From a virus (Duplodnaviria; Caudoviricetes): 59,588 nt of DNA. The notes under the pieces were generated by a model. That model had not been told where the DNA came from. It did not search any database and was given only the letters and a program-made list of their open reading frames with translations. Numbering within the stretch: position 1 is the stretch's first letter; each line of letters opens with the position of its first letter. Location: IMG/VR virus record IMGVR_UViG_3300022841_000019, positions 1 through 59,588 of that record. One strand, written 5' to 3'. Below, one piece after another: positions 6,278 to 52,550 of this stretch. A program made the position numbers and the translations under genes.

Positions 6278-6305
6278 AATTTTAACTATTTAATTATATT
6301 ATATT

Positions 6306-25500: not shown

Positions 25501-28500
25501 AAATAGCTTTTACACCAAACAATAAGCTAGTATCTCTTAGAGACGGAAACGATAAGTTTTGGTGGGACCGTATGGATGCCGCGTTCAAAAACACAGATGA
25601 GTTAATTGAAGCTAACTATACAGATAAAAAAGGTGATATAAAATTCAGCAAGAATCTTGAAGTTAGGTTTTCTAAAGCGTTTGACAAGTCAGATGTGAAA
25701 ATTCTTACTAATACAGTAAATAACCAACTACTAAGTGATGAAACCAAAGAAGCATTATCTAGTGTCATCGAAGAAGGAAATAGCAATATAATAGATGTTT
25801 TAAAAGCAATAGATCAAATAGCTAAAGTAGAGATTACAGAAAAAGACCGTAGAGAATTTCAAGCAGAAAGTGTAAACAACCTAGTGTCTTCTTATAGACC
25901 TAGTGATCAATCTATAATACTAAAAGCGTTTAGTAATTATAGAGATACATATATTAAAGAGTATGAGCGGTTTGGACTTAGTGTAGTTTATTCAGACTTG
26001 AAATCTAATTTAAGTAAAACAAATAGCAGTGACGAAAATAGAGCGGAATTAATAAAAGAATTTCTATACTTTGCTTCTAGATCAGCTAAGTCAAGTAAGT
26101 TAGAGAAAGTTCCTAGTAATTATGATTTCTTTAATAAGTATATAAAACCTATAAAAATAGCTGTAGATTTAGGTTTTAAAGTAAAAAGAGAAGATGGTAA
26201 GTCATTTATTTACTATAAAGACGAATTGCTAAGAGGCATGTTGGATATTACTAACGAGATTAAAAAAACTGGTTTCACTCCAGCTACTGTTATTGAAATT
26301 GAGGCTCAAGCAGCGGCATCTGTTAATTACATTATTAAAGCTATATCAGACCAAAATGGTGATATTAATAAAATAAAATCAGTTATAGCTTTTCTTTCTT
26401 TAGATCAAAGAGGTCCAATACGTAAGCTTTCTAAACCTGGAGCGCAAATGCAAGGCGTAAAACCTAAAGACATGTATTTAGAACACGCTACAACAGTTCT
26501 AAAGATTAAAAAACAACTACTAGAGTTTGGCGAAAAAGGCAATGAAGCTTCTTTGAGAAGTTATTTGAAAGGAGTTTATGTTAACCTTATATCTAAAGAA
26601 CTAAACAGCGTTCTCTCTAAGAGTAATCTACAAGAGGCAGATGCTTCAAGATACTCTAACACAGAAGCTCAGTCGATAATTAGCAAAGCTATTAAAGAAA
26701 ATAAAATACTTCAAATAGCTCCTGTCAACACGGGTTTAGGAAAATATAACGAAGAAGTTAATAGCGACGCGCGATTCAGTAAAAACTTAAGTAGAGAATT
26801 TAACAAGATAATAGAAAATAAAACCGGCATACTAGCTACGGAGACAATATCTGAAGTAAAAGCTAAAATGATAGCAGATAGCCAACGTCGTTTCAATATA
26901 TTTATACCACCATCGGCTGAAGATTTTGTTGGGCTATTGTACTACACACTAGGTAAAGGTAAAATTGGTGATCAGCAGATGCAGTTTTACAAAAGAACAT
27001 TACTAGACCCATATGCTAGAGCGAATCAAGCCATATCAAGAGATAGGAATGCCTTTGGTAGAAGATTTAAAGAGATAAAAAAAGAATTCAAAGTTACACC
27101 GAAAGACCTTAAAGAAAAAACTCCAGATGGACTATTTACTAGAGAGCAAGCTGCTCGTGTTTGGATATGGAATAGCATAGGGATAGAAGCTCCAGGTTTA
27201 AGTAAAACAGATATTAGTGAATTGGTTAAATACGTCGATGCTGACGCAAATTTATCTGAATTCGCTGCTCAAGTAATGAGGTTGAACCCAGGTAAAAAAT
27301 ATCTTTCACCTAGTGACACGTGGATAACAGGTAACATAACAACTGATCTACTAGAGGTGTTAAACACAACTAGAAGAAAAATGCATTTAGAGCAATGGCA
27401 AAAAAACGTTGATGCTATTTTCTCAGTAGAAAACCTAAACAAGTTAGAAGCTTCTTATGGGACACAGTACCGTAAAGCAATGGAAAACACGTTAAGGAGA
27501 ATGAAAACCGGTAAGAACAGAGATTACGGTACCGATACTCTAACAGGTAGAGTTACAGACTGGGTAAATGGCTCTGTTGGCGCTATAATGTTCTTAAATA
27601 CTAGATCAGCAGTTTTACAAACAATATCTGCTATAAACTTTATAAACTTTACAGATAATAACGTTTTAGCCGCTGGTAAAGCTCTAGCTAATCAAAAGCA
27701 GTACTGGAGTGATTTTTCAACTCTTTTTAAATCTGAATACTTGATTGACAGGAGAGATGGTTTGAAAGTAAATGTAAACGAAGCTGATATAGCGGATATA
27801 GCTAAAGAAAAAGGCGCTAGAGGAGCTTTAAACTATTTGTTAAAACTAGGCTTTACGCCAACGCAGGTAGCTGATAGCTTTGCTATTGCATCAGGTGGTT
27901 CTACTTTCTATAGAAACAGAATTAATTCTTTAATTAAAAAAGGAATGGATCCATTAGCAGCAGAAAAACTAGCTATGAGGGATTTTATAGAGACAGCTGA
28001 AGAATCTCAACAATCTAGTAGACCAGATAAAATAAGTCAACAACAAGCAGGTCCTTTAGGGCGTATTATACTAGCTTTTGCTAACACACCAGCCCAGTAT
28101 GCTAGACTTATTAAAAAAGCCGCTAGCGATCTTAAAAACGGCAGAGGAGACGCTAAGTCTAACATATCTAAGATACTTTACTATGGGGTTGTTCAAAATA
28201 TTATATTTACAACGCTGCAACAGGCTGTTTTTGCTATGACATTTGGAGACGAAGAAGAGGAAGACAAGAAAACAGTGGATGTAGTTAATAGTATGATAGA
28301 CGGTATAGCTAGAGGTACGGGTATCGGTGGAGCTATATTTTCAGTTGTTAAAAACACAGCTTTAAAGCTATATAGAGACAGTGAAAAGAAAAACCCTAAA
28401 TATGAAGATGGTTTTTTAGAGTTATTAAAGATAGCACCTCCAATATCTTCTAAGATTCAAAAGTTTAGAGCAGCTGGTAGAACAATGTCTTGGGAGATGG

Positions 28501-28772
28501 ATGAAATTAAAGAACAAGGAGTTAGCTTATCTAGCCCAGCTGTTAAAGCAGGTGGTAAAGTTGTATCTGCTGCTTTTAATTTTCCATCAGATAGAATTAT
28601 ACAAAAAGTAGAAAACCTAGTTGACGCATCTAATAGCGAGATAGAGACGTATAAGAGATTAGCTTTAATAGGTGGTTGGTCAGCTTGGGAATTAGATATA
28701 AAAAAAGAAGAGGAAAAAAAGAAGAAAAAAACAAAAAATAACTTAAACTTAAAAACTAAGATAGAAAGATAG
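19566..28772 (+). CDS. giant (3068 aa) multidomain ejected/polyvalent virion protein with zincin and sigma-region-2-like domains
   Basis: HEFLH at aa 969-973 with downstream EE; ENNLGAVTNLAKK...VPFGAY at aa ~1246-1308; four xFSK linkers; no DxDxD RNA polymerase motif seen. Confidence 0.7.
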   Translation: MFEFNGKQYSLDQLQAIANEKGYTFEELLSKNPTIKEIKQESPVGGFFGEEVKTNAVVGPVANATAKQGVATDTVLGSGNTSSALQDSDTELKKPTLDQFEKMSLDQKRKLNFSDRQRLTAERDLKAKNSRQLDKTKEASVKKISTDQALFNFEQRTGQKASSIMDLTDSDYGAPPQLQKFKPVDKLETYKRNRNRLNELQLEKDKLRKKAEVTSYETMDPMESVNYVKKTMKDFDETVANEVKVMNLNPDFKLRNDAIIQLSRNSNNNRATGDVASDLSSEAGVLNLFKGKSYYKNLESTETIKLNDEVEDAVINNLDERSLQKLAGGFYTLQEKENLINNVKIPLIKEKEKEISTAVEKLTIETESKMYNYSKEINNINALIKDVVSGKQKDEQGRYILNEEDSSAYNILVSKYENTNSKIRSTAENYDYFKKDAANKFNSYQGELGVDLAKQTMNNNFKLSSDADSFREKYAGDGFWNATKDIVGGDLVQGLYQTVKKATVGSGSWVLSSFGDMFQDQDNYSSFDAFRDIVGNWTNNTMVPQSTDEKFSITKEEGGFKGFEARNYAKLGVSMVPFTGYLISEVRKGNYTGLKDALGKTYINLGAKGKVLPQASQKLKDNIIMVDATFRATIIDNQKQAELLGLNGLQATAYATAISSTEALVQSIMPDAQFLKGVGGKTIKEAFAGTLKTAANKEGVKSAVKEFSTGILKEYAEEEITLGANILTDASFGLALPKASEFLNQQIELTMGTLMLSGSMGTVGAKNTFSNQKKLIYNQISENINGLELHLMTMYKYTKDSESKEKINDAIVFSRDIKKAIESSPENVTSEQIDLLVEKSKLIQEKEKTDPAFYSEIDEKINKIDKDIKQGGVKRDILSKIEKDIENVQKNAAKIGVNIGEVIALEDDVNESSADKMKKILLDSGLSEERSEESKGNLGVFITNKEGKEILVINKTVAIKESVVTTGQHEFLHKLLRYNFAEDSKSLNEGVELLKNVIQSLPESQGVEFKDRLSSYEKDYEDKKITKDNFYEEYITLFSEALSREDVKPDKSTYTKIKDYFRRQFQDVGLIKIKFNESENSVVNFIEDYNKAFQKGKIGKEFVIKKSANVDEKIAKQTISESKSIADIETKIEDLTDRYYNGEMDDIEYEQELGNLESKLEAAKRAPIEEKVVSKPSTLDNKNNTEEVIKKASEKVFKETEVSDKNKDISKKNEDISNEILELKANSVSDIKDPEKRKAIVNRLGENNLGAVTNLAKKAAAVGKDLAIDSGLKVGYDEFFSGFSEELSALINTYKVLVDGKKVPFGAYMKKNLSLRYGQILDKALKGKIQNTQSLDLEAGSVGSTRELADEGSRDFDAYTSAERGLPAGELIDVTTFNNVKDKIGTIKDIVKTENIDIANLTYKKVVDQYAGPVGAAILGVYSTDPNNAFDVDMNKKLAERIDGTRTLNYGKDTGGEAEVRAMQKLFLNYNDAVKFIKTIPEFNIAPFETTVDKQGKSIDLTTDAKGYSVGTSSVLLNQLYDVYVDPKSKSSDKDVKNRAITSPSGRGKGKTSQVAKVYRLKDKYRGRVSKEAVKELQKTIGITEAGEAFIPMKGVNRTKFGTALQGLTKIYAANVANTIIRKDIVEKGITSDKKPTEKVLADIGGGKSRVMFSKNAKKSYETSLAKNRPSMKDAAGQVDKLFLWVDNLNVPKNKKSKFEKLAFYYMNNGFVILPEDGYKVIQAERISSIKKIDPYSYKNPNEILEQFSGEIKPMKINPDEVNSFSNKKVLENGLVVYDVKDDKQGQLDVRAAVDSTWGVKSNPWCLIARTIKSKDSLNQKILDLWGEQGVGWYDFEDFSSIKEARKAASKYEKSGEYEKITVTSEVEYDESSKQFISLDSLNKEKAKLKELGFMFKPVVELPGLQTKLGKVYILTYYKEESGTVVMRRDFNKSKKHPIKNVFFKEKETEAKSILSNLNELDNSFRLFESYNSDGNGYKIAFTPNNKLVSLRDGNDKFWWDRMDAAFKNTDELIEANYTDKKGDIKFSKNLEVRFSKAFDKSDVKILTNTVNNQLLSDETKEALSSVIEEGNSNIIDVLKAIDQIAKVEITEKDRREFQAESVNNLVSSYRPSDQSIILKAFSNYRDTYIKEYERFGLSVVYSDLKSNLSKTNSSDENRAELIKEFLYFASRSAKSSKLEKVPSNYDFFNKYIKPIKIAVDLGFKVKREDGKSFIYYKDELLRGMLDITNEIKKTGFTPATVIEIEAQAAASVNYIIKAISDQNGDINKIKSVIAFLSLDQRGPIRKLSKPGAQMQGVKPKDMYLEHATTVLKIKKQLLEFGEKGNEASLRSYLKGVYVNLISKELNSVLSKSNLQEADASRYSNTEAQSIISKAIKENKILQIAPVNTGLGKYNEEVNSDARFSKNLSREFNKIIENKTGILATETISEVKAKMIADSQRRFNIFIPPSAEDFVGLLYYTLGKGKIGDQQMQFYKRTLLDPYARANQAISRDRNAFGRRFKEIKKEFKVTPKDLKEKTPDGLFTREQAARVWIWNSIGIEAPGLSKTDISELVKYVDADANLSEFAAQVMRLNPGKKYLSPSDTWITGNITTDLLEVLNTTRRKMHLEQWQKNVDAIFSVENLNKLEASYGTQYRKAMENTLRRMKTGKNRDYGTDTLTGRVTDWVNGSVGAIMFLNTRSAVLQTISAINFINFTDNNVLAAGKALANQKQYWSDFSTLFKSEYLIDRRDGLKVNVNEADIADIAKEKGARGALNYLLKLGFTPTQVADSFAIASGGSTFYRNRINSLIKKGMDPLAAEKLAMRDFIETAEESQQSSRPDKISQQQAGPLGRIILAFANTPAQYARLIKKAASDLKNGRGDAKSNISKILYYGVVQNIIFTTLQQAVFAMTFGDEEEEDKKTVDVVNSMIDGIARGTGIGGAIFSVVKNTALKLYRDSEKKNPKYEDGFLELLKIAPPISSKIQKFRAAGRTMSWEMDEIKEQGVSLSSPAVKAGGKVVSAAFNFPSDRIIQKVENLVDASNSEIETYKRLALIGGWSAWELDIKKEEEKKKKKTKNNLNLKTKIER

Positions 28773-29344: not shown

Positions 29345-31096
29345 TTAGCCATCACAACTTATACAATCCTCGCTCATAGCAGCAGCTGCGATATCGCCAC
29401 GTAAAACGCTTTCTGTTCTAGTGTAATATAAAGTTTTAACACCTTTTTTCCAGGCTTCCATGTGAACTTTGTTGATCCATTTTGGCGTAGCTTCACTAGG
29501 AAAAGCAAGGTTTAAACTAACGGATTGATCAATATACTGTTGGCGTATTCCAGCTTGATTAACTAATTCCAATTGGTTAATCTCTTTGAAAGTTCGATAC
29601 ACTTCTTTAGCGGGGATAGAATGCATACCCACAGTAACATCGTCAAGCTCCATAATATCCTCAACAGAGCCTCCGTCAGCCAGTATTTTATTCCAGATTT
29701 TTTCATTGTTTATTTTGTGTTTTTTTAATAATTTAACTAATGTAGGGTTTTTACGTATAAAAGTTCCTTTTGCTGACTGTTCGGTAAAAACATTCGCGGC
29801 CCAAGGTTCTACTCCTGGTGAAACATTCCCGCTAAGCTTACTATTACTAACGGTAGGAGCAATAGCGCGAAGATGAGTATTACGCATACCTGTACCAACA
29901 CACCAAAGAGGTTCACCATATATCTCGGCAAGAGCCATTGAAGCGCGTTCGCTTTCGATTTTAATTTGCGAAAAAATCTTCCTAGTTTCAAACTGAGCCA
30001 GTAAACCTTCAAAGGGAATTCCTTTTTCTTGGAGATACGTGTGCCATCCAAGAACTCCCAATCCCAATGCTCTCCCTTTCTGGGCGGAACGAATCGAATT
30101 CTCGAAGCCTCGTAACCCTTTGGCTCGTTGAATAAATTCTTCCATAACTCCATCAAGAAAGTAGATAGAGTCATATATAAGGTTAGTGTCTTTCCATTCT
30201 TCATATTTTGCTAAATTTAATGATGATAAACAACAAACAAAGCTGTGATTTTCATCGGTGTGTAATGTGATTTCAGAACATATGTTAGTCATATGAACTT
30301 TTAATCCGTTGTGTTTATATGCTTGAGGATTCGCTTTGTTAACGTTTCCCTTAAACATAATGTATGGTTCACCAGTTGCTTTTCTTTTTCTAAGAAGTTT
30401 GCTCCATCTAGTTCTTGCCTCTGCGTCACCGGATTCCAGTCTACGCATAAACTTATCTCCAACAACAGCGCATTGGTGAAGATTAAGCGACTGTCTATTG
30501 ACATCTCCCTTAGGTTCTCTGATTTCAAGCCAGTCTTCGAAATCGTCATGCTCGATATTAATATTAATCGAAGCAGCTCCTCGTCTAACTGATCCTTGAT
30601 TAGTGGCCAAGATAGTTGAATCGTAGATTTTACAAAATGGTACGACTCCATCTGATGTTCCATTGCCTGTTATTTTAGTTCCAGCGGCTCTAATTTGATT
30701 TATACCGATACCAACTCCACCGCCGTGTTTAGCGAGTAGCATCATCTCTAGATTTTTAGTTCCGATATCTTGTATCGAATCAGCAACGTCAATACCAAAA
30801 CAACTAATAGGTAAGCCGCGATCAGTCCCAGTGTTTGAGAGTACAGGACTAGCAAGGCACAACCAACCATTCCAGATATAATCGAAAAACTTATTAGCCA
30901 TTTCAGGTTTATATAATCTTTTAGCAACCGCTTCAGCGACTCTACGGTATGCTTCTTTGGGCGTTTCTCCGTTATGTAGATATCCCCCGGATATTGTCTT
31001 CTTGTATACGTCGTTATCACCCCACGTTGGAAAATCTTCTCCCTTGATCCAGTTCGGGTCCCATCCTGATTTATTCTTGATTTCATTTCCAGTCAT
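29345..31096 (-). CDS. nrdA: ribonucleotide reductase class Ia alpha subunit
   Basis: ISCF, GGGVG, TNICSEI, APT.S.S motifs, C-terminal YY and CxxC; no ATP-cone. Confidence 0.95.
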   Translation of the reverse strand: MTGNEIKNKSGWDPNWIKGEDFPTWGDNDVYKKTISGGYLHNGETPKEAYRRVAEAVAKRLYKPEMANKFFDYIWNGWLCLASPVLSNTGTDRGLPISCFGIDVADSIQDIGTKNLEMMLLAKHGGGVGIGINQIRAAGTKITGNGTSDGVVPFCKIYDSTILATNQGSVRRGAASININIEHDDFEDWLEIREPKGDVNRQSLNLHQCAVVGDKFMRRLESGDAEARTRWSKLLRKRKATGEPYIMFKGNVNKANPQAYKHNGLKVHMTNICSEITLHTDENHSFVCCLSSLNLAKYEEWKDTNLIYDSIYFLDGVMEEFIQRAKGLRGFENSIRSAQKGRALGLGVLGWHTYLQEKGIPFEGLLAQFETRKIFSQIKIESERASMALAEIYGEPLWCVGTGMRNTHLRAIAPTVSNSKLSGNVSPGVEPWAANVFTEQSAKGTFIRKNPTLVKLLKKHKINNEKIWNKILADGGSVEDIMELDDVTVGMHSIPAKEVYRTFKEINQLELVNQAGIRQQYIDQSVSLNLAFPSEATPKWINKVHMEAWKKGVKTLYYTRTESVLRGDIAAAAMSEDCISCDG

Positions 31097-31507: not shown

Positions 31508-32476
31508 TTACCATATATTATCGTAGTCTTCATTTTCCCCAGCTTTTGAATAATCTGTCGACCTAATAGCGAAAAAATCAGTATGAGTGACCCCCCCGGT
31601 AAGATGATAGAACCAATTAAGATTATTTGCTGCTTTAACGTCATAAGCGAAATAGTTTCCAAGGTCGACATAACCCAATTCCACAAGTTTTTCATTTGTT
31701 CTCTTCTTTATAAAGTGTTTAAGGTCGTTTGATGAGATACCTTCTATGTCACCCATTTCAAACATTTTGTCAATATAATTTGTTTCTAGTTTTACCATTG
31801 CCTCTGCAGATGTTATAATATCCTCTCTACAAAGATTTAGTAATTGATTATCTTCTTCACACATATGTCTAAACAATTGACAACCCATTTTACTATGAAG
31901 AGATTCATCTCTCACAGACCATTTCATCTGTTGTCCGATACCCTTAAGTAAATTACGCAACTGAAAAGAATACAGAACTGCAAAAGCGGAATAGAGAGAT
32001 ACGCCCTCAGCGAAGGCTGAAAAGACAGCCAAAGATTTAGCGATACCAGTGCGGCTTGTACCACTATATGCAACCAGGTTATTAAACCTTTCAGCAGTTG
32101 CTGGTTCGTGTAAAAAAGCCTCATAGTCTTCTAATTTTAATGTTTCGTTTAAATAACTGTAAGCTACCGCGTGGACTGTTTCTTGTGATCCAAACATCAT
32201 AGCCATTTGTTGTATCTCGTGTTTAGGGAACCAACTAACAACTTTCTGGGTCCAGTAATCCGACACTGCACATTCTGTTTGAGCAAAGCCAAGAAGTATA
32301 TTCCCAACTAAGTTTTTTTCTTTTTCATCTAGCTTTTCATTCCAGTCTTTGATATCGCTTTGCATTGATATCTCTGTGTGTAACCAAAAAGCCTGAGCTT
32401 GTTTAAGCCAACCTTCAGTGTAATACTCTGGGTGCTCAAAGGGTTTGTAAGCAACTCGTGGTGTAAATAATGACAT
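31508..32476 (-). CDS. nrdB: ribonucleotide reductase class I beta subunit
   Basis: W...E, E.VH..AY, EG..LYS.F, DESLH di-metal motifs; C-terminal DFF...Y. Confidence 0.95.
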   Translation of the reverse strand: MSLFTPRVAYKPFEHPEYYTEGWLKQAQAFWLHTEISMQSDIKDWNEKLDEKEKNLVGNILLGFAQTECAVSDYWTQKVVSWFPKHEIQQMAMMFGSQETVHAVAYSYLNETLKLEDYEAFLHEPATAERFNNLVAYSGTSRTGIAKSLAVFSAFAEGVSLYSAFAVLYSFQLRNLLKGIGQQMKWSVRDESLHSKMGCQLFRHMCEEDNQLLNLCREDIITSAEAMVKLETNYIDKMFEMGDIEGISSNDLKHFIKKRTNEKLVELGYVDLGNYFAYDVKAANNLNWFYHLTGGVTHTDFFAIRSTDYSKAGENEDYDNIW

Positions 32477-33704: not shown

Positions 33705-34032
33705 CTTTATTTTTTTTATCGTGACAACCACGGGGCTTCTTAACGTAGTGCTCCCCGTTGTTACCATTTTGAGCTATTATATTTATACGTTTAAGTTCTA
33801 TGTCTTCAGATAAATCAGACAACTCTTCTTTAGCTGCTTGAAGATAAAGTATTGCGTCCATTAACTCTTCTTGCACATCGTTTAGATACCCAAATAGGTT
33901 TTTATGACCACCGGTTCTTTCGCTATCTAACGTTCTACCGTATTTAGCAAAGCCCACGTTGGATCTTTCTACAAACTTATTAACTACCCGTCTAACGACT
34001 GGATCTCTAAATTCTATTTTCTCTATACTCAT
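33688..34032 (-). CDS. all-alpha NTP pyrophosphatase-like phage protein
   Basis: G..KYG.TL...QEELMDAILY motif. Confidence 0.5.
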   Translation of the reverse strand: MSIEKIEFRDPVVRRVVNKFVERSNVGFAKYGRTLDSERTGGHKNLFGYLNDVQEELMDAILYLQAAKEELSDLSEDIELKRINIIAQNGNNGEHYVKKPRGCHDKKNKDAEAL

Positions 34033-34033
34033 T

Positions 34034-34804
34034 TTATAATGTTTGTTTTACAAATGTTCCGTTAATCATCTCGCCTTTTCTACCTTTAATAACGTCATAA
34101 GCACTTGTGACGCAGTCTTCTATTCTTAGATTTTCTAAAGCAGCTAAGTTTGTTAAAACAACAACAATATCACCAATAGCATCTATAATCTCTGCTTTAT
34201 CATTCTTAAGCAAAGCCTCAGCTAGTTCGCCAGCTTCTTCCATTAGTTTTAGATATTGAGTTTTTGAATCACCTTTAGCGTATATACCTTTTTCTTTAGC
34301 CCAAGTCCTTATTAAATCATAAACGTTTCTTTCGTTTTCCTCATAGAAAGGTTTTTCACTCTTAAATTCATTGGCCATAGCCTTGTTATACACATATGAT
34401 CTACCACTGTTGTACATGGAAGTTTTAGCATTAGCTACTATTGATTTAATGTTGTCTTTTGTTATAGTGAATTCACCATGAGCCGTACTCCACTTTAAAC
34501 CCAAAGCATCTAGTAATCTGCCTTTTAATTTATTAAGTGGAACTGGAAATGTAGTTGTTTGTTCTGTTATGTTAATGTCCATTTTTTTGTTTTTATTGAT
34601 TAAATTTTTATAAGATTGTCGGTCTACTTTGTAGCCATAAGACTTTTGAAGTTCTATCTCCATAGTTGATATATAATCTATATCGTCGCTAGTAAGTAGA
34701 ACTTCGTATTCGTCTAAAGCGTAACCTTGTTGCTTCGTAACCCTGTTAATAAGATCACGTGTTACTCCTATTTTTTTACCGAATATGTGATAGATGTTGT
34801 ACAT
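34034..34804 (-). CDS. MazG-like NTP pyrophosphohydrolase with GIY-YIG-like N-terminus
   Basis: C-terminal KLMEEAGELAEA...DAIGD MazG motif; N-terminal YNIYHI..KIGVT.DL..R. Confidence 0.7.
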   Translation of the reverse strand: MYNIYHIFGKKIGVTRDLINRVTKQQGYALDEYEVLLTSDDIDYISTMEIELQKSYGYKVDRQSYKNLINKNKKMDINITEQTTTFPVPLNKLKGRLLDALGLKWSTAHGEFTITKDNIKSIVANAKTSMYNSGRSYVYNKAMANEFKSEKPFYEENERNVYDLIRTWAKEKGIYAKGDSKTQYLKLMEEAGELAEALLKNDKAEIIDAIGDIVVVLTNLAALENLRIEDCVTSAYDVIKGRKGEMINGTFVKQTL

Positions 34805-34808
34805 TTTA

Positions 34809-35450
34809 TTATATTTTATCGTTATACAAATGCAAGTTATGCGCGTGGTGATAATACGTACCAACGTTGAAACCTGTCATCTTAGACATTAAAACCTGTA
34901 GACGTGAAAAACAATACTGATCAATACAGAAACCGTACCAGAGGTCATTAGAACGCATATAGACTGACATATTTAGTTTGTTATCTACAACCGTGAACTG
35001 AACAGCATAAGTACAAGGCGTGTCGTTAGTGTATTTGTCATGCTCTTTACCATCGTAAATACTAATAGTTGCTTGTCTAGTGCTTGGGTTTTGTCTCAGT
35101 TTTTTAGCTACGTAACCTATTTGATCGTTTCTCATCCATTGATATCCATAATTAGAATTAACATCACCAAATTCATCGGCCATACGTTTCCATATAGGAG
35201 GTATTTTACCGTATATTTCTCCAAGCTTCTTTATATTAGGATCACCAGATACATACCAGGCCCATTCTGCTTTCGCGTAGTCTATATTGAATTTACGCTC
35301 AACGTTATGTATAGCATTATCCATTGGGTTTTCTAATGTAAATCCTACATTGAATAAAGCCTTAGTGTTACTAAAATTAACACCATCAGTAATAATCTTG
35401 TCGTGAAAGTACTCATACGCTTCGTTTGCATTTTTAAACTTTGTTTTCAT
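34809..35450 (-). CDS. thymidylate synthase-family enzyme, dCMP hydroxymethylase/methylase-like
   Basis: NYGYQW, RQA, DTPC, QF, MRSND...G...D, H...NLHLY; Asp at the position equivalent to E. coli ThyA Asn177. Confidence 0.8.
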   Translation of the reverse strand: MKTKFKNANEAYEYFHDKIITDGVNFSNTKALFNVGFTLENPMDNAIHNVERKFNIDYAKAEWAWYVSGDPNIKKLGEIYGKIPPIWKRMADEFGDVNSNYGYQWMRNDQIGYVAKKLRQNPSTRQATISIYDGKEHDKYTNDTPCTYAVQFTVVDNKLNMSVYMRSNDLWYGFCIDQYCFSRLQVLMSKMTGFNVGTYYHHAHNLHLYNDKI

Positions 35451-35688
35451 ATTTATTAAAATAATATTTATAGTATTCGTACATTTTAGGCCATACACTA
35501 CCTTTGATATATGTTTTAGGGTCTTTATTACTTACCCCTTTGTTTTTAATAACCATACCCCATCTACCTTCAGATATAGCGAAAGGGCTAATAAGTATAT
35601 CGTTACGCATACACCACAACCAGGCTTCAGTATCTGTTTTGTTAGGGGTGTAATCACCCATATCAAAAGGACTTTTTCTAGCTGCCAT
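35434..35688 (-). CDS. hypothetical protein
   Basis: 84 aa, coupled between primase-helicase and the ThyA-like gene. Confidence 0.55.
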   Translation of the reverse strand: MAARKSPFDMGDYTPNKTDTEAWLWCMRNDILISPFAISEGRWGMVIKNKGVSNKDPKTYIKGSVWPKMYEYYKYYFNKYENKV

Positions 35689-35690
35689 AC

Positions 35691-37412
35691 CTACTCCCAA
35701 GGCATTTTATCACCACTTATATCTAGTTGTTGGTGAGGTATAAAACAACCTGAGGCTGGCTCCCATTTAAAATGAGACTCAGCGCCATTTTCGCCTAAGT
35801 TTTGAAACTTAACTTTCAAGACTTTAGCTTTAACTGTTTTCTTGTCATAATCCCTGTGAACTAATATACCATGGTAACTAGCATCATACCACTCTCCTCC
35901 TCCTTTAATGTTGTACATAGTTGGTTCTTCTATTTTACCGTCTTTGTCTTTATACATTTTAGTTGGATGAGCTACAATAAAGACTAACACATCATACTTT
36001 TTAGCAAATATCTCTATCTTAGCTAAGTACTCCATAGTGTACCTATTCACATCGTCAGAACCACCAACGTCTCTAACTTTATTAAATGGATCAATAACTA
36101 AACACTTAATACCTTTACGTTTAACAAGCTCAGCTCCTTTACGTAGAACCGAGTCTAATGTGTAACGCTCCATATCTATGTGAAAGAAATTAGAGTTACA
36201 ATGATCTGCTATTTGATTCCATCGATCACCACCAATATCATCTTTAGTTGGCATACCTTGCCAAACTTTACGCATTAACTTATGAGCGTGTAAATAAGTC
36301 GGTTGATTCTCTGGTGAAGCAAACGCCGTTTTCCAGCCGTAATTAGCATTATACCCAACAACCATTTGGTCGACAAAATCACTTTTTCCGGAAGACGGAA
36401 TACCAGTAACAGTAATGAATTGACCAGTGTAAGTTGAAAATATACTATCAAAATGCTCAAGACCAACTTGAAATCCTGGCTTGAACCCGTTACGAACAAA
36501 GTCGGTAATCTCTCCTTCAATATCTCTGAAAGTCGTAACATTCTCCATAGGTACCGGCTTTGCGCTTGATACTCTTTCTGATAACTTTTCTTTTCCATAT
36601 TTAATTAAGTATTCGTTAGCATCTTTACAGTCTTCAAAGGTAGCTATGTAACAAACTTCAGACCCTAGTCTACGTATTAATTCTGCTTGCAAAGCCTGAC
36701 CAGCTTCATCTGAGTCGCATGCTAAAATAATTTTATCTTTGCCTTCAAAATAATCAATACAGTTATCTAAGTAATCTAAATTGTTAGAGTTCAACGTAGC
36801 TCCATTAGGAACTGATATAACGTTTTTTACACCGGCCTCATGTAAAGCTAATACATCCATCTCGCCTTCAACTATAATACAGTGATCAAAACCAACTATA
36901 CTATTTATATTGTAAAATACTTTTTCAGCTCCTTTATATAGCTTAAAGTTTTTTCTACCATCACGGTATTTAACATTTACTAATTGATCACCTATTATAT
37001 AATTAAACTTTATAACGTTCTCTGTCTTCTGAGTCTGTGGCATCCATTCAGGGCCTTCAGAAACATTAAGATCTTTGAGCGTTTGTTCAGATATACCTCT
37101 AACATTAAACCAATCAACTACCTTAGAACTAGGAGGCTTAATGGATTTTAAAGCTTCAACATCTGGTCTTATGTAAACTTTTTCAGATTCACCTTTACGC
37201 TTGTAAGTATTCAATTGAAAACTTGTATTGCAATTGTGACATGTGCCTAAACCTCTCTGCCAATCGTAAGAAGCACATTGTGCTTTTTGATTTTTAGCTT
37301 TTCTATCAGACGAACAGAGGGGACAAACTCCTTGTTTCTTCCCCTCTTCTAATTTGTGAATATTAAATTCATCTATCTGAAAGCCATTAACTTCCGTATG
37401 TTCTACTTGCAT
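35691..37412 (-). CDS. T7 gp4/Twinkle-like primase-helicase
   Basis: Zn finger CPLC...CHNC, TOPRIM EGEMD and DSD, Walker A TGIPSSGKS, LVIDP, VAHP. Confidence 0.95.
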   Translation of the reverse strand: MQVEHTEVNGFQIDEFNIHKLEEGKKQGVCPLCSSDRKAKNQKAQCASYDWQRGLGTCHNCNTSFQLNTYKRKGESEKVYIRPDVEALKSIKPPSSKVVDWFNVRGISEQTLKDLNVSEGPEWMPQTQKTENVIKFNYIIGDQLVNVKYRDGRKNFKLYKGAEKVFYNINSIVGFDHCIIVEGEMDVLALHEAGVKNVISVPNGATLNSNNLDYLDNCIDYFEGKDKIILACDSDEAGQALQAELIRRLGSEVCYIATFEDCKDANEYLIKYGKEKLSERVSSAKPVPMENVTTFRDIEGEITDFVRNGFKPGFQVGLEHFDSIFSTYTGQFITVTGIPSSGKSDFVDQMVVGYNANYGWKTAFASPENQPTYLHAHKLMRKVWQGMPTKDDIGGDRWNQIADHCNSNFFHIDMERYTLDSVLRKGAELVKRKGIKCLVIDPFNKVRDVGGSDDVNRYTMEYLAKIEIFAKKYDVLVFIVAHPTKMYKDKDGKIEEPTMYNIKGGGEWYDASYHGILVHRDYDKKTVKAKVLKVKFQNLGENGAESHFKWEPASGCFIPHQQLDISGDKMPWE

Positions 37413-37471
37413 TATATCTAATTGAATATGATTTGTTAATATTTCAGTGTTTTATATTCATTTGAATATAA

Positions 37472-37792
37472 TTAAAACGGTAGATCATCATCGACAGCGC
37501 TTACACTTGCTTGCTGATATTGTCCGTTACCACCATTTTCATCCCTAGGTGCGGTCTGTACGTTTGTACCGTTTGTCCATACGACTTTGATGTTGCCAAG
37601 ATAAACCTTAGGAGCTTTCGCTTCACGTTCTTCTTTAGATTGTTCCACTGTAACTGGACCTTGATTTCCATAGTTGTCAACTTCATCGTTTATTGTAATT
37701 GTGATTGGTAAATACGATCCTTTTTTTCCTTTGTAGATCTTGTCTTTAGGAATGTCGTTTAAGTTAATGTTTGCTTTAATAATACTTGCCAT
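37472..37792 (-). CDS. ssb: single-stranded DNA-binding protein
   Basis: OB-like beta core with acidic C-terminal tail DDDLPF. Confidence 0.75.
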   Translation of the reverse strand: MASIIKANINLNDIPKDKIYKGKKGSYLPITITINDEVDNYGNQGPVTVEQSKEEREAKAPKVYLGNIKVVWTNGTNVQTAPRDENGGNGQYQQASVSAVDDDLPF

Positions 37793-39188: not shown

Positions 39189-39965
39189 TTACAGATAATC
39201 AATCACTTGCGAGTGATCTACGTTATCTATTAATCTTTGTATTGCTTGTCTTTTTAGTTCTGATACGCGAACGTAAGAACTTACTCCTTCAATGTTTAAA
39301 GCATCGGCTATATGTTTGGCTGATTTTTTATCACAGTCTAAACCATAAGACAATCTTAGAACTTCATATTCGTTACCTACTAAATGTTTTTTCATTAAAC
39401 TCTTTAGATAAGAATTTAATAACTCCATATTATACGGCTCTGATTCATCTCTTATAGATTCAGCCCAAGAACTATGGTCTTCGTTAGATTTTTCACCAGC
39501 ATTGAAAGACGTATCTATACTTGTAAATATAGAGTTAAAAAACAACGCAACCATTTTTTCATCTTTAGGGTTACTACGTATTTCATTTAACTTATGCTCT
39601 GGTATTCTCATATCTCCTCTAACCATATCTATCCTGCGTCTTATAAGACCTTTGATGCGTTTGCTAAAGAAAGATTTAAGCGTACGTTCTACATCTAAGG
39701 AGTTTTCTAAAACTTTCCAGTCTAACTTATCCACAGCCCGTATTAGTCCCTCAGAACCAATCTGTATTATGTCGTTGATACTTAATACACCGGAAGCTTG
39801 CTGTGTTGTAGAGAATTTACGGCTTAAGTTTTCTACTAAAGGTAAAAACTTTATAATCAGTTCGTCTCTAGTATACTCATTCCATTTTGATTGTTTTATA
39901 TTAGATATAGATTTTTTTAAATCTTCTTTATACCTGATATAATTCTGTACATTATAGTTTTTCAT
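39189..39965 (-). CDS. sigma-70 family RNA polymerase sigma factor (probably late)
   Basis: Region 2 ELI..FLPLV..LSRKF...DIIQIG.EGLIRAVDK, RIP; region 4 VLRLSYGL...IA..L...RVSEL...AI.RL. Confidence 0.85.
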   Translation of the reverse strand: MKNYNVQNYIRYKEDLKKSISNIKQSKWNEYTRDELIIKFLPLVENLSRKFSTTQQASGVLSINDIIQIGSEGLIRAVDKLDWKVLENSLDVERTLKSFFSKRIKGLIRRRIDMVRGDMRIPEHKLNEIRSNPKDEKMVALFFNSIFTSIDTSFNAGEKSNEDHSSWAESIRDESEPYNMELLNSYLKSLMKKHLVGNEYEVLRLSYGLDCDKKSAKHIADALNIEGVSSYVRVSELKRQAIQRLIDNVDHSQVIDYL

Positions 39966-40756: not shown

Positions 40757-40964
40757 CTGTATTAAGTTTATGTTCTTCAAGTAAATCATACATTGCTTCT
40801 TTATAACTCTCTAAAGTGAAATCAGTTTCATCATGCTTCCATTTTCTCCAAAAATTATGTTTAAGTTCCCAAATAAATCCAGCCATGTCAGATGCTTTTA
40901 TGCATTCCTTATGAGATATTTTATCGTCCTCGTTATCTAAGTCAAATTCTAGTATTGCTTTCAT
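40749..40964 (-). CDS. hypothetical protein
   Basis: 71 aa, MKAILEFDL. Confidence 0.55.
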   Translation of the reverse strand: MKAILEFDLDNEDDKISHKECIKASDMAGFIWELKHNFWRKWKHDETDFTLESYKEAMYDLLEEHKLNTDD

Positions 40965-41392
40965 AATGTTACTTTTATATTACCTGTATCTTTTGTTACT
41001 AAATGAACGCTTGAGTCAACTGTTATATTACTCCTTGTTTCATCTGCTTTCCAAAATTCATGTCGAATCACTTGAATGATATCATAGGCTTCTCTACAAG
41101 ATTCATTTACTTTTTTATTATGAATACCCCAACTACCATTACGTGGGTGCGATGGATCTTGCATCAACATATTCCGTGGATGTATTAACATTGCATCTAC
41201 TGAATCTCTAACTTGATGAAACCTATTGTAATCTGTTCTTCCGTTCATTAACTTTAATTCATTAGACAAATGTCTTTCAAATGTTGGATGCTCTTTGATA
41301 ACTTCAAACTGCCCTATCCCTACTCTTGAGTAGAAATCTAATGCTCTTTGAATCAATCTTAATTGATTATTATTTAATTCTATTCTTGCCAT
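40961..41392 (-). CDS. hypothetical protein
   Basis: 143 aa, coupled. Confidence 0.6.
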   Translation of the reverse strand: MARIELNNNQLRLIQRALDFYSRVGIGQFEVIKEHPTFERHLSNELKLMNGRTDYNRFHQVRDSVDAMLIHPRNMLMQDPSHPRNGSWGIHNKKVNESCREAYDIIQVIRHEFWKADETRSNITVDSSVHLVTKDTGNIKVTL

Positions 41393-41394
41393 AA

Positions 41395-42072
41395 TTATAT
41401 TTCTAATATATTTCCGTTACTACTTAATCTACCAAACTTACCATCAGTTACCACAGACCCATTTGAGAATATAGTATTCTGAGTAGCTAATTGCATAGTT
41501 CCAGCATTAGTTATATCCACATTGTTATGGATATGACCGAAACACACCAACTTTAAGTTAGGTAATTTTAATACTCTCTTTTTTAATGCTGAACACCCGC
41601 AGAATTCTACTTCATGATTTCGGTTATACGCTAAATCCAAGATTCCTTTAGGTGGTCCATGCACCACTACAATATTTGTGTCGTCTGGTATCTGTTGCCA
41701 TACTTTATCTAACTTAGATCTTTGCTTCATAAAAGACCAATTCCCAAAAGAAGGTGTATGGGGGCTTCCCCATATCTTAACACCTTCAATAGTAATACTA
41801 TTATTTTCAAGATATATAATACCGTTATCATTAAAATCAGCTTCAATTACTAATTTAGACTCAATACTCGAATCGTGGTTTCCAGCTACAAATATCTTAT
41901 GTTCAATAGGCAGTGTTTTAAACCAATGTATAAAATCTCTTACTTCAGGTTCATTAGTATAAGGAGATCTAGGATTAGAACAGTCACCACTAAAGATGAC
42001 TATATCTATTCCTTCAGGTATTTCTAATAATTTGTGGTACGTGTGAGTATCACTTATGTGCCATATTTTCAT
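41395..42072 (-). CDS. calcineurin-like metallophosphoesterase
   Basis: SDTH, GD, GNHD, HGPP, GHIH. Confidence 0.9.
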   Translation of the reverse strand: MKIWHISDTHTYHKLLEIPEGIDIVIFSGDCSNPRSPYTNEPEVRDFIHWFKTLPIEHKIFVAGNHDSSIESKLVIEADFNDNGIIYLENNSITIEGVKIWGSPHTPSFGNWSFMKQRSKLDKVWQQIPDDTNIVVVHGPPKGILDLAYNRNHEVEFCGCSALKKRVLKLPNLKLVCFGHIHNNVDITNAGTMQLATQNTIFSNGSVVTDGKFGRLSSNGNILEI

Positions 42073-42124: not shown

Positions 42125-42373
42125 TTATAAACCTTTGTTAATAGCATTTATAAGTTTTCTAACGTGCTTTGTCTTATAAAACCTTATTGGTTCTTGTGTG
42201 TTAAATATTTCTACAAAACATTTCTTTTCATCGCTATCACTAGAAATTAAACAAAATTCTTCATGCTCTTTATAAAAATCATAAATAAAATAAATAAATT
42301 CTTTGTCCCCTGATTCCTCTGCTGAAACATATTCTTTTTTAAATCCTAATTTCTCTAAATCTTTAAAATTCAT
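42125..42373 (-). CDS. hypothetical protein
   Basis: 82 aa. Confidence 0.5.
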   Translation of the reverse strand: MNFKDLEKLGFKKEYVSAEESGDKEFIYFIYDFYKEHEEFCLISSDSDEKKCFVEIFNTQEPIRFYKTKHVRKLINAINKGL

Positions 42374-42990
42374 AATTGTTGGTTTAATAGTTCTTTCTCT
42401 TTTTTTAATTCATTACTCATGTTTCTATGTATTGTCCTTGTTGAACATTCTAAAGATTTAGCTAATCCGCTAATAGTTATCTTAGATCCTAAGTCGTGAG
42501 TATCAAGCATGCATTGATAAATATCATCTTCATGTATCTTTTTACCACGACCTATAATTTGACCTACTATTTTTAATTTCTCTTCAGTGGTTAAACCGGT
42601 GAACTCATTGAAAATGATTTTTCTTAGCTTGTTTTTAGGTGGCTTTTCTAAGTCACACATGCTAACCTCATATATTATGTTGTTAAGTAGTTGCTCTGGT
42701 ATTTCAAAAGTTACAAAACCATTTGTTTTCTCAGCTATATGAGCTACTACTTGCTTAAACTGATCTTGATCAAGGCTTGGGTTTAAATACCATAATACTA
42801 ACATGTGCCATTTTAAAGACTTATATGTAGTAATCTTAGCTCTTGATCTAAACAATTCATAACATTCATTAGTTCCTTCTTCGTAATAATTACCCCATTC
42901 AAAAGTGCTGGTTGGTTTATCACTAATAGGACCTCTACGGTATATAATTCTTCGTCTATTCAATATTTCTAGATTTCTAATGTGTGACAT
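42370..42990 (-). CDS. DNA-binding protein with C-terminal HTH (candidate initiator/regulator)
   Basis: ITISGLAKSLECSTRTIHRNM HTH; start codon lies inside TGTGACA element copy 1. Confidence 0.65.
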   Translation of the reverse strand: MSHIRNLEILNRRRIIYRRGPISDKPTSTFEWGNYYEEGTNECYELFRSRAKITTYKSLKWHMLVLWYLNPSLDQDQFKQVVAHIAEKTNGFVTFEIPEQLLNNIIYEVSMCDLEKPPKNKLRKIIFNEFTGLTTEEKLKIVGQIIGRGKKIHEDDIYQCMLDTHDLGSKITISGLAKSLECSTRTIHRNMSNELKKEKELLNQQL

Positions 42991-44086: not shown

Positions 44087-44677
44087 TTAATTATTGTTTC
44101 TTAATATGTTCCATATTATTGCTTGATACTGATATCCTTTTAAACCTAATTTGTTTGCTTTGTTTATTGTTAGTTCCTTAATTTGTTGGTATGCTAATTT
44201 ACCTATTGAAGCACTATTAATTTTTATAGACTTATTCATGCACGCCCTTAAATGCCATATATCAATCGTTAAATGTGCATCACTTAATAAAGCTATATTA
44301 TATACAAAATTATATGTTTTAAGACTCTTACTTGTTATATGTATATTGTTGTTAACAATATTAAATGCCTTAAATTTATTTGTGTGAAAAGTGCAAACTT
44401 TTATATCTTCCGCAGGTACATTGTTTTTTATTGCTTCAAAAACTTTGTAAGCATCCAATATGTTTTGTTGCCATAAATTACGTGGTGATAAAGCAGAAAT
44501 GACACTTGCAGCTATAAAAGTATTGCTATCATATTTTGTTGCAATATCTTTGCAGATATCGTTAGCATCTTTGTACCAAACTAAACCGCTTTTAAAATCT
44601 TCTTCATTAGCTAAATTAAAATAATAGTCTAAATTTTTACTAATTTTTGATAGTTGGTATCTTGTTAATTTTTTCAT
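44087..44677 (-). CDS. conserved phage protein, DNA glycosylase-like helical fold suspected
   Basis: WY..A, ALSP...W..N, TIDIW..RA, QAI.W pattern. Confidence 0.5.
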   Translation of the reverse strand: MKKLTRYQLSKISKNLDYYFNLANEEDFKSGLVWYKDANDICKDIATKYDSNTFIAASVISALSPRNLWQQNILDAYKVFEAIKNNVPAEDIKVCTFHTNKFKAFNIVNNNIHITSKSLKTYNFVYNIALLSDAHLTIDIWHLRACMNKSIKINSASIGKLAYQQIKELTINKANKLGLKGYQYQAIIWNILRNNN

Positions 44678-45047: not shown

Positions 45048-45085
45048 CTTGTTTATGTTTTATAATTTTATTGTTTTAACTCTAG

Positions 45086-45157
45086 TTTTCCCACAAGGAA
45101 TCGAACCTCGAATGTCTGCATCAAAAGCAGATGTGTTACCAATTACACCATGGGAAA
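45086..45157 (-). tRNA. tRNA-Gln(UUG)
   Basis: Acceptor TTTCCCA/TGGGAAA, D arm GTGT-AATTGGTA-ACAC, anticodon arm TCTGC-TTTTGAT-GCAGA, T arm CGAGG-TTCGATT-CCTTG; followed by CTA, not CCA. Confidence 0.92.
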
Positions 45158-48413: not shown

Positions 48414-48707
48414 CTAATCTAACTCCCAGTTTTCTTTGTTTAGGAACGATTCTACGTTCTTAGACCTATTCAAACGTTCAGCAGCATAGGTTTTATACTC
48501 GTCAAAATAATAGTCTATTAGATCTTGAGTTTCTTGCTCGCTGTAAGCTACAAACTGCTTTACGTGGTAGTCGTGTAAAAGATCTTTATCGTTACAAGTG
48601 TACTCTGTGATCGTGGATTCAGTCTGCTTTTCCAAGTTGTACTGAACGCGGCTACTAATTGTGTATAGCACGCCGCGATAGAAATTCTTTTTACTTATTG
48701 TACTCAT
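48414..48707 (-). CDS. hypothetical early protein
   Basis: 97 aa. Confidence 0.55.
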   Translation of the reverse strand: MSTISKKNFYRGVLYTISSRVQYNLEKQTESTITEYTCNDKDLLHDYHVKQFVAYSEQETQDLIDYYFDEYKTYAAERLNRSKNVESFLNKENWELD

Positions 48708-49263
48708 TATAGATCAATTTTTTAATAATACCATCTACGACTGAAACTGTAGTACCACTAACTTCTGTATTATCTTTTAGAATAAATCTCGCACGAGGTA
48801 ATTTGCTAAGACCTAAGGAAACTAGTATTTCATTTAAGCACCAATCTCGTTGTATTATCTGGAAATCACTTGCAGTAGTTTTCTTTTCACACTTAGCAAG
48901 CTCTATCTTTAAAAAGTTTATTCTATCTTCTACACTATAGCTAGACAGCTCGTTTTCAATAAATCCAATGATTGTTTTTTCCACTAAACAATAAACACCA
49001 CTCTGTAGATCAGAGTAATTGTTTTTAAATAACTTACTGTATAAATTTCTAAACTCTGAGTAGTTTGTATCATCACCACCTATTGACCATTGCATATCGC
49101 ACTCTAAGTCTTCTATGGTCCTAACTTCTTTATCACCGATTATTTGAGTGTGAATATTTCCCGTGGCTTCAACTTGCGCTGTTATAAGTTTGTTCACTTC
49201 TACTACTACATCGTAGTTAAATCTTATCCAATCTGGTTTCTTTGTAATTGCTTTAATTTTCAT
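48691..49263 (-). CDS. hypothetical early protein
   Basis: 190 aa behind P7. Confidence 0.6.
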   Translation of the reverse strand: MKIKAITKKPDWIRFNYDVVVEVNKLITAQVEATGNIHTQIIGDKEVRTIEDLECDMQWSIGGDDTNYSEFRNLYSKLFKNNYSDLQSGVYCLVEKTIIGFIENELSSYSVEDRINFLKIELAKCEKKTTASDFQIIQRDWCLNEILVSLGLSKLPRARFILKDNTEVSGTTVSVVDGIIKKLIYNEYNK

Positions 49264-51812: not shown

Positions 51813-52550
51813 ATGGCAAAAATATCAAGTTACCCGTTAATTACTCCAAAAGCAAGTGATCTTATAGTGGTGACACAAACTTATGATCCTAATGCGGTTA
51901 ACCCTGTGCTTGGTAATCCGACTAAATCAGCAACCTTAGGATCAGTAGCCGATTTAATAGATTCATCCAGCAAGATTAGTAGTATCGGTTTAAGGTTCAC
52001 TTGGTCGTTGAACGATCCGTTGTATAGAGTAGCTTCAGCTCACATCGGAAGCGATGGAGCTTATAGTAAGTTAGGAGTAGATTTTGACAACTTAGTGTTA
52101 AATAGCGGTTCTACGTACAAATTATTAATAGAGAGAAACAAGAGACCTGGTATTAAAGGTGCTTTACCAGATTTGTTTACTAGATATAGAAAAGGTGGAT
52201 ATAAATCACCTAACACTACGCAGATATTACCAGCCCCTTATACGGATAGATTAAGCGAAATACCTATAACAGCTGTAACAGGTCAGTTGTTTGATTTTAG
52301 GTTTGATTTATTTTTCAGAGCAGGAGGAGATCACTTTCCTACGCCAGCTGGTTTTTCTTTAAAAATCTCATCTAATGGATCCTCAACATCTAACGTATCA
52401 AAAAAGCAACATATAGCTCTTAGAGTGCAAGAAACAACAAATGGCGTTGTGACTACCTCTAGTATATTAGGGGAATTGTCTTTGGTCGGTTCGTATTCAC
52501 AACACTTAGCTGAGAGTGAGATACGTAGGGTTACATTTAGATATAAATAA
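51813..52550 (+). CDS. putative virion accessory protein
   Basis: MAKISSYP...DL...TK N-terminus shared with the next ORF. Confidence 0.55.
   Translation: MAKISSYPLITPKASDLIVVTQTYDPNAVNPVLGNPTKSATLGSVADLIDSSSKISSIGLRFTWSLNDPLYRVASAHIGSDGAYSKLGVDFDNLVLNSGSTYKLLIERNKRPGIKGALPDLFTRYRKGGYKSPNTTQILPAPYTDRLSEIPITAVTGQLFDFRFDLFFRAGGDHFPTPAGFSLKISSNGSSTSNVSKKQHIALRVQETTNGVVTTSSILGELSLVGSYSQHLAESEIRRVTFRYK

Follow-up and report, generated by a model that had tools for sequence, protein, structure and literature searches.

A short ThyA-family protein predicted to hydroxymethylate dCMP is encoded beside a MazG-domain fusion gene in an uncultured phage

The phage record IMGVR_UViG_3300022841_000019 of IMG/VR (59,588 bases, GC content 28-36%; analysed over its whole length and called the window below) encodes on its minus strand a protein of 213 amino acids that is related to the thymidylate synthase (TS) ThyA. 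Judged by its residues, this protein is likely to be a minimal form of a folate-dependent deoxycytidylate (dCMP) 5-hydroxymethyltransferase of the T4 gp42 type, whose product would be 5-hydroxymethyl-dCMP (5hm-dCMP). The DNA of the phage probably carries a modified cytosine, and the further step that its cytosine is fully substituted by 5-hydroxymethylcytosine (5hmC) appears somewhat less likely than the enzymatic assignment itself. An initial annotation of this stretch, made from the sequence alone, had placed an Asp codon at the position of E. coli ThyA Asn177 and had proposed a dCMP-using enzyme and possibly a cytosine-modified genome. The codon was recovered as GAT at 34922..34920, phmmer and MAFFT assign it to the same column as Asn177, and the proposal derived from it is backed by the sequence and model evidence laid out here.

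Membership of the protein in the ThyA superfamily is clear. It matches the Pfam family Thymidylat_synt (PF00303) with an E value of 3.8e-29 and 102 bits at a cut-off of 24.3, over profile positions 47-214 of 266, as well as four thymidylate synthase families of the PHROG database, and the hallmark residues of the superfamily (C146, R166, S167, D169, H207, Y209) are all present; by chance, the active-site numbering of the query protein coincides with that of E. coli ThyA. It scores far below every cut-off of the NCBIfam ThyA equivalogs (e.g. 83.5 versus 327 bits), which marks it as a superfamily member and not as an orthodox ThyA. The most visible difference is at the C-terminus, where the protein stops four residues past the motif H207-L-Y209 and the C-terminal tail of ThyA is absent; the corresponding number of residues after the H-x-Y motif is 12 in RB69 gp48, 17 in BF486P2 gp32, 28 in T4 gp42, 55 in E. 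coli ThyA and 61 in the TS homologue of phage PaMx74. A homologue search returned 120 sequences (the close set; 69-83% identical, several of them from ocean surveys) of similar length, 198-226 amino acids. Of the last two residues of the query, K212 recurs in 119 and I213 in 111 of these 120 sequences, with both columns filled in all of them, and the downstream gene starts 5 bases past the stop codon. Together, these observations indicate that the protein is whole, and a split or intron-interrupted gene was rejected on the same grounds. A megablast search with positions 34000-37500 gave no match among phage records.

The residue that selects the pyrimidine lies in the peptide MRSNDLWYGFCID, which is found in the translated open reading frame (ORF) and in which the Asp of GFCID is residue 177. 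In phmmer comparisons with solved structures, the partner of Asp177 is Asn in the ThyA motif GVPFN (6auj) and Asp in the motif GAVSD of the CMP hydroxymethylase MilA (5b6d). In MAFFT alignments of the query with E. coli ThyA, T4 gp42, RB69 gp48, SPO1 gp29 and PaMx74 TS, the column contains Asn in E. coli ThyA and SPO1 gp29 and Asp in the other rows. Asp177 is present throughout the close set (120/120) and in all rows of a wider set of 136, which was composed of the query, 12 of 119 close homologues and 123 of the top 150 representatives of 50% clusters (at least 190 amino acids; the other 27 representatives were left out as fragments); it is therefore not a chance substitution. An exchange of Asn177 for Asp leads to the use of dCMP (PMC13326640), and in environmental contigs analysed by MetaGPA, positions 177 and 147 show the greatest differences between those with modified and those with unmodified cytosine (PMC8670742). 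By itself, Asp177 no longer fixes the product (PMC13326640, PMC6400193, PMC8670742).

Several additional rules have been published. Enzymes with the bulky Leu143 tend to yield methyl products, and those with Asp or Glu at this position, as in T4 and MilA, hydroxymethyl products (PMC13326640). The signature of dCMP hydroxymethylases (dCH) combines an Asp three residues before the catalytic Cys with Ser-x-Tyr, represented in T4 by the water-coordinating Ser94 and Tyr96 (PMC6400193); T4 Asp145 is regarded as the water-activating residue of hydroxymethylases (PMC6400193, PMC13326640), and the T4 mutant D145N is inactive (PMC6400193). Asn169 is the hallmark of 5-hydroxy-dCMP synthases that depend on flavin, RB69 gp48 among them (PMC13326640), the C-terminal tail of TS closes the active site so that hydride can be transferred (PMC6400193), and the ribose preference of MilA is explained by Ala176 and Lys133, with Ser and Arg going with deoxyribose substrates (PMC5175136).

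At every diagnostic position the query matches T4 gp42, and it differs from E. coli ThyA, RB69 gp48, PaMx74, the deoxyuridylate (dUMP) hydroxymethylase SPO1 gp29 and MilA (Table 1); the reference enzymes themselves behave at these positions as the published rules say. Residues common to the query and T4 gp42 are S99, Y101, D143, C146, T147, R166, S167, D169, D177, H207 and Y209, which corresponds at the level of motifs to NSNYG, an Asp three residues before Cys, a Thr after Cys, RSND including Asp169, Asp177 itself (in MRSNDLWYGFCID of the query and MRSNDVVFGFRND of T4) and H-x-Y. Both proteins have the same fold (PDB 1b49, 1b5d and 1b5e for T4 gp42), and both lack the ThyA C-terminal tail. 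All diagnostic residues are kept in 119-120 of the 120 close homologues, D143, S99, Y101 and D169 in every one of them. The combination D/T/D/D at positions 143/147/169/177 extends to 125 of the 136 rows of the wider set, and the remaining 11 deviate at 143 or 147 only.

Table 1. Residues of the query and of reference enzymes at the diagnostic positions (query numbering; one alignment)
Protein	99	101	143	147	169	177
Query	S	Y	D	T	D	D
T4 gp42	S	Y	D	T	D	D
E. coli ThyA	P	Y	L	H	D	N
RB69 gp48	T	Y	E	T	N	D
SPO1 gp29 (dUMP hydroxymethylase)	A	Y	D	N	D	N
PaMx74 TS	A	Y	N	P	D	D

An AlphaFold2 model of the 213-amino-acid protein, built from 29 sequences, had a mean pLDDT of 88.8 and a pTM of 0.87. Foldseek comparison of this model with the PDB placed MilA first (TMq 0.86-0.87), with bacterial ThyA at 0.77-0.79 (E. 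coli TS 0.78-0.79) and T4 dCH at 0.72-0.74, all with E values of at most 1e-13, and of at most 5.2e-14 for MilA, E. coli TS and T4 dCH at 0.73; the modelled fold thus backs superfamily membership and would not, taken alone, pick a subfamily. MilA, which acts in mildiomycin synthesis (PDB 5jnh, 5b6d), resembles the query further in having Asp at both the 177 and the 143 position (PMC13326640), and differs from it by the ribose-favouring pair Ala176/Lys133 and by an extra C-terminal domain of five helices (PMC5175136), which is missing from the query.

A phylogeny with reference enzymes had been proposed in the initial annotation as a check. Our FastTree analysis is exploratory, comprising the best hits of the query and six references on long branches, and is used here for the clade of the query and not for deep relationships. 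The query falls into a clade of 15 rows (204-224 amino acids, 4-5 residues after Y209) with a support of 100, nested in a clade of 34 mostly short-tailed rows with a support of 96; T4 gp42 stayed ungrouped. The larger clade includes the closest protein from a cultured phage, gp32 of Bacteroides phage BF486P2 (WAX06796.1, annotated as deoxycytidylate 5-hydroxymethyltransferase), which is 45.8% identical by tblastn and 47% in the alignment and shows the same signature and a short C-terminus. In contrast to the phage described here, BF486P2 (OP172667.1) has a gut Bacteroides host and two ThyA-like genes (3168-3929 and 6001-6681) with a dUTPase between them. Both of these genes carry D/T/D/D at positions 143/147/169/177, and a literature search found no paper on the DNA chemistry of BF486P2. 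Among more distant homologues with D/T/D/D, P0189 is a fusion of an N-terminal TET-associated glycosyltransferase (TAGT; PF20691, E 2.2e-12) with TS, and P0237 carries a thymidylate-kinase-like domain (E 2.6e-7) C-terminal to TS; the two fusion partners represent two downstream steps of the 5hmC pathway. TAGT enzymes presumably act on 5hmC. In addition, a thymidylate-kinase-like domain is fused to the distant D177 homologue P0264, with a match below the Pfam cut-off.

Immediately downstream of the ThyA-like gene lies a gene that went unmentioned in the initial annotation and whose product of 256 amino acids is a fusion protein (Table 2). Its C-terminal third matches PRA-PH (PF01503, E 3.9e-7), MazG (PF03819, E 8.3e-7) and a MazG-like PHROG (E 9e-37), and both Pfam families match all 28 sequences of an alignment (A3) of the protein with 27 orthologues taken from related loci. 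Four acidic residues, E189, E190, E193 and D208, are invariant in this alignment and are presumably the metal ligands of the EExxE...D motifs. The model of the fusion protein reached a mean pLDDT of 87.9 with a pTM of 0.41, the latter because the orientation of the domains is not fixed. VIA-align found Sulfolobus MazG 1vmg at Z 9.6 (rmsd 2.3, 81 residues) and MazZ of cyanophage S-2L at Z 9.0, both within residues 156-256, the aligned part ending near residue 243. The N-terminal 70 residues show the pattern Y-x-Y-H-I-P-G-K-K-I-G-V-T ... R and match the families T5orf172 (best E 2.1e-5) and MUG113, both of which we take to belong to the GIY-YIG clan, in 11 of the 28 orthologues each, the copy of the window itself missing an E value of 0.1; a protein atlas gave the same T5orf172/GIY-YIG-like lead. 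The middle domain is conserved and has no fold assignment.

The two genes are linked far beyond the window. A scan of IMG/VR yielded at least 599 pattern matches, at least 566 of which encode a relative, and the counts out of 80 given here refer to the best 80 of these loci. In every one of the 80 loci, a homologue of the fusion gene follows downstream of the ThyA-like gene with the same orientation, which makes it a candidate for the gene of a dCTPase. The gap between the two genes, measured between tblastn alignments, is at most 63 nucleotides in 76 loci and 293-800 nucleotides in the other four; the fusion homologue is covered over its full length by one alignment in 78 loci, in two pieces in one locus and in its MazG part only in another. 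Outside this pair, the unknown-function gene downstream (orf114) is the most frequently retained neighbour, its protein having only unknown-function PHROGs as matches, no Pfam match and no named atlas cluster. Homologues of a DUF1064 nuclease and of the primase-helicase occur in the flanks of 70 and 69 of the 80 loci, and the genes of ribonucleotide reductase (RNR), which serve deoxynucleotide supply, share the minus-strand block with the ThyA-like gene.

Table 2. Features of the ThyA-like gene and its surroundings in the window
Feature	Position	Strand	Remarks
ThyA-family ORF, 213 amino acids and stop	34809..35450	-	ATG at 35450; predicted dCMP hydroxymethylase (5hm-dCMP synthase)
Asp177 codon GAT	34920..34922	-	E. 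coli ThyA Asn177 position; cytosine-specificity residue
Asp169 codon GAC, RSND motif	34944..34946	-	kept; not the D169N change of 5-hydroxy-dCMP synthases
Catalytic Cys146 codon TGT	35013-35015	-	read from the sequence
Asp143 codon GAC	35022..35024	-	3 residues ahead of catalytic Cys146; equivalent to T4 gp42 Asp145
Ser99-Asn100-Tyr101 within NSNYG	35148..35156	-	Ser-x-Tyr hydroxymethylation signature; same motif in T4 gp42
Fusion protein, 256 amino acids, candidate dCTP pyrophosphatase	34034..34804	-	T5orf172/GIY-YIG-like (~1-70), middle domain, MazG/PRA-PH (~156-256)
Unknown-function protein orf114, 114 amino acids	33688..34032	-	tblastn match in 72/80 loci
Upstream ORF, 88 amino acids	35434..35700	-	end overlaps ThyA-like start by 17 bases; homologue in 39/80 loci; no Pfam or PHROG match
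RNR small subunit	31508-32476	-	PF00268, E 6.9e-55; 63/80 loci
RNR large subunit	29345-31096	-	PF02867, E 2.7e-93; 53/80 loci

The MazG domain most likely converts dCTP to dCMP, if the analogy with T4 gp56 holds and the synteny is taken together with the published co-occurrence of TS and PRA-PH genes in cytosine-modified contigs (PMC8670742). With T4 gp56 and mammalian DCTPP1 the C-terminal domain shares the MazG-type four-helix fold; the T5orf172/GIY-YIG-like and middle domains are lacking in both of these enzymes.

From the observed fold, residues and synteny we infer a pathway whose product, MazG substrate, kinase and polymerase steps and modified virion DNA would be as follows. By analogy with T4 gp42, Cys146 would attack C6 of dCMP, the N3/N4 face of the cytosine would be recognised by Asp177, and methylene-tetrahydrofolate would be held by Asp169 and Trp87. 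After transfer of the methylene group, a water molecule placed by Asp143 and Ser99/Tyr101, instead of a hydride, would add to the exocyclic methylene, releasing 5hm-dCMP and tetrahydrofolate. The MazG/PRA-PH domain would hydrolyse dCTP to dCMP and thereby, like T4 gp56, both feed the hydroxymethylase and bar unmodified dCTP from replication. A host enzyme or an unrecognised phage kinase may then phosphorylate 5hm-dCMP, and a polymerase encoded outside the window would incorporate the modified nucleotide. As the outcome, cytosine would be wholly or largely replaced by 5hmC, with no recognisable glycosylation step.

Several observations weigh against this assignment or against the pathway built on it. 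The sequence identity between the query and T4 gp42 is only 26%, and T4 gp42 is located outside the supported clade of the query, elsewhere among the D/T/D/D proteins on a long branch without supported grouping. T4 Arg220, which contacts the pterin (PMC6400193), is not conserved in the query, where it corresponds by reading of the alignment to D211. The signature rules derive from few characterised enzymes, and the rule for position 143 is only a correlation (PMC13326640). As for the fusion protein, the sequence of its MazG domain does not reveal the substrate; when the model of the entire protein was searched with Foldseek, no hit had an E value of 0.001 or less (mouse and human dCTPase are among the top rows, at E about 0.04), and a comparison with T4 gp56 gave nothing significant (best BLASTP E 0.043; profile comparison probability 2.2%).

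The main gap in the pathway is the kinase. T4 and RB69 phosphorylate modified dCMP with a phage kinase (PMC13326640), and T4 has in addition a separate dCTPase, gp56, of the dUTPase_2 family, as well as glucosyltransferases. No deoxynucleoside monophosphate (dNMP) kinase for 5hm-dCMP and no glucosyltransferase was recognised in the window by six-frame family searches or by scans of its ORFs with Pfam (49 ORFs) and PHROGs (21 ORFs), about two dozen ORFs below 100 amino acids being left out of the scans. The same six-frame searches and scans found no ThyX, dCMP deaminase, thymidylate kinase, or GT1 or GT2 glycosyltransferase, in agreement with the initial annotation, which had recognised no glycosyltransferase, dNMP kinase or dCMP deaminase. 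They also detected no DNA polymerase of family A or B, so that a polymerase of the host would need to accept the modified deoxynucleoside triphosphate. With an estimated completeness of 93%, the record may lack genes. For five of the 80 related loci, the entire contigs (58-72 kb) were searched: one of them has a dCMP-deaminase-family gene about 7 kb from the module and four have none, and one encodes a family A polymerase. Of three related contigs with a completeness of at least 90%, two lack a family A polymerase, as the window does. This indicates that the module sits on varied backbones.

An extension of the hydroxymethylase reading takes these absences at face value. The ThyA-like gene and the GIY-YIG-like/MazG fusion would then form a self-sufficient two-gene cassette for cytosine replacement, which dispenses with a phage kinase, glycosyltransferase and polymerase: the MazG domain would remove dCTP, the nuclease-like domain would attack unmodified dC-containing DNA in the manner of T4 endonuclease II, and kinases and the replisome of the host would finish the process. 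Such self-sufficiency would explain the presence of the pair on many different marine phage backbones, and we give this proposal a small chance of being correct.

There is a slim chance that 5hm-dCMP is only an intermediate and that 5hmC is decorated further, with an amino acid, a phosphate, a carbamoyl group or an unusual sugar, by an unannotated phage protein. Known systems do attach groups to 5hmC (PMC8670742, PMC13326640). The TAGT fusion of P0189 points in the same direction, and the window contains many ORFs of 140-250 amino acids without a family match (e.g. 40961-41392, 42370-42990, 48691-49263, 51813-52550 and 52707-53288) as well as a DUF7178 protein of the early-gene block (44087-44677, minus strand, E 5.6e-30). 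However, none of these is conserved beside the module, as orf143, DUF7178, orf190, orf245 and orf193 occur in the flanks of none of the 80 loci and orf206 in those of 43, and the scanned ORFs showed no domain of a GT1 or GT2 glycosyltransferase, a carbamoyltransferase or a kinase.

The initial annotation had left 5hmC, 5-methylcytosine (5mC) and an unusual route to thymidylate (dTMP) side by side. The residues discussed above, D143, Ser-x-Tyr, T147 and D169 as in T4 gp42, favour the first of these, and the other two fare less well. A dCMP methyltransferase of the Xp12/PaMx74 type, which would make 5-methyl-dCMP and lead to a genome with 5mC, is improbable in our view. Asp177 alone is compatible with such an enzyme: five of seven deaminase-associated D177 TS homologues that were tested made 5-methyldeoxycytidine, and phage PaMx74 is said to replace cytosine by 5mC (10.1101/2024.12.05.627091). 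In PaMx74, too, the TS homologue is accompanied by a PRA-PH gene (NC_028809.1, 2277-3074, minus strand; 265 amino acids, Pfam E 9e-16), which overlaps the start of the TS homologue in a gene order opposite to that of the window; profile comparison of A3 with this neighbour (probability 1.1%) gave no evidence of a relationship between the two proteins. Yet PaMx74 TS, the sole reference of the 5mC type, for which there is no curated signature, has N, A and P where the query has D143, S99 and T147, and the query, with its four residues after Y209, lacks the C-terminal tail that closes TS for the transfer of hydride.

An ordinary thymidylate synthase or another supplier of dTMP, acting on dUMP directly or by way of a deaminated modified cytosine nucleotide and leaving the genome canonical, is very improbable. 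In its favour, ThyA is a common means of dTMP supply among phages, RNR genes but no second thymidylate synthase were found in the window, and there is the dCMP-deaminase-family protein of one of the five related contigs. The features of canonical ThyA are all replaced or missing in the query, however, with D, T and D instead of Asn177, His147 and Leu143 and no folate-closing tail. The route from 5mC to thymidine needs a cytosine deaminase (10.1101/2024.12.05.627091), and that the searches found no deaminase in the window, nor in four of the five related contigs, weighs against it. A 5-hydroxy-dCMP synthase that depends on flavin, like RB69 gp48, and a hydroxymethylase of the ribonucleotide CMP, like MilA, are equally remote: the query shares Asp177, an acidic residue 143 and a short C-terminus with RB69 gp48 and DLP3 gp80, and MilA is its best structural match, but the tested 5-hydroxycytosine synthases have Asn169 and use flavin and O2 (PMC13326640), whereas the query and all 120 close homologues keep Asp169, the pair S167 and R125 is in the deoxyribose state and not the Ala (at 167) and Lys (at the Arg126 position) of MilA/BcmA, and the gene lies within a block for phage replication and nucleotide metabolism.

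With regard to the phage itself, the closest match of its primase-helicase is the counterpart in Cellulophaga phage phi10:1 (44% identity), which suggests a host among the Flavobacteriia. The window also encodes an ERF recombinase and a PDDEXK nuclease in addition to the primase-helicase and RNR genes. A chaperonin of the Cpn60/GroEL family (53368-54909, plus strand; PF00118, E 3.7e-59) and a protein with a match to a PHROG labelled co-chaperonin GroES (809-1414, plus strand; E 2e-26) are encoded at opposite ends of the record and would be neighbours on a circularly permuted genome. A protein of 481 amino acids (15368-16813, plus strand) matches crAss-virus muzzle domains (PF25729, E 2.4e-9; PF25731, E 6.3e-7), and just downstream of its gene lies an ORF of 3068 amino acids (19566-28772, plus strand) without a Pfam match, which has a homologue in 35 of the 80 loci; a virion module of the crAss type may therefore occur in a marine phage. 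A sigma-factor-like protein (39189-39965, minus strand; PHROG 351, E 1.2e-16, and a weak Pfam match to Sigma70_r2) has homologues in 47 of the 80 loci. The early-gene block further contains a single tRNA gene, tRNA-Gln with the anticodon TTG (45085-45157, minus strand), and a calcineurin-like phosphoesterase (41395-42072, minus strand; E 8.7e-16), which was not found in the flanks of the 80 loci.

Already published are the residue logic, the association of TS with PRA-PH and the fact that environmental phages with modified cytosine exist. Our literature search found no description of this abundant marine clade of ThyA-like proteins and its fused partner, and no paper that joins a dCMP hydroxymethylase with marine Flavobacteriia. 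If the assignment is correct, a large group of marine phages that has so far escaped cultivation, with relatives on at least 566 IMG/VR contigs, would replace cytosine by 5hmC with a minimal set of enzymes. This would bear on the escape of these phages from restriction and CRISPR, could bias the sequencing of viromes by enzyme-based or nanopore-based methods, and would provide a compact dCMP hydroxymethylase of 213 amino acids for biotechnology. Being far from T4, the clade would also offer a clean test of the residue rules for positions 143, 169 and 177 and for Ser-x-Tyr.

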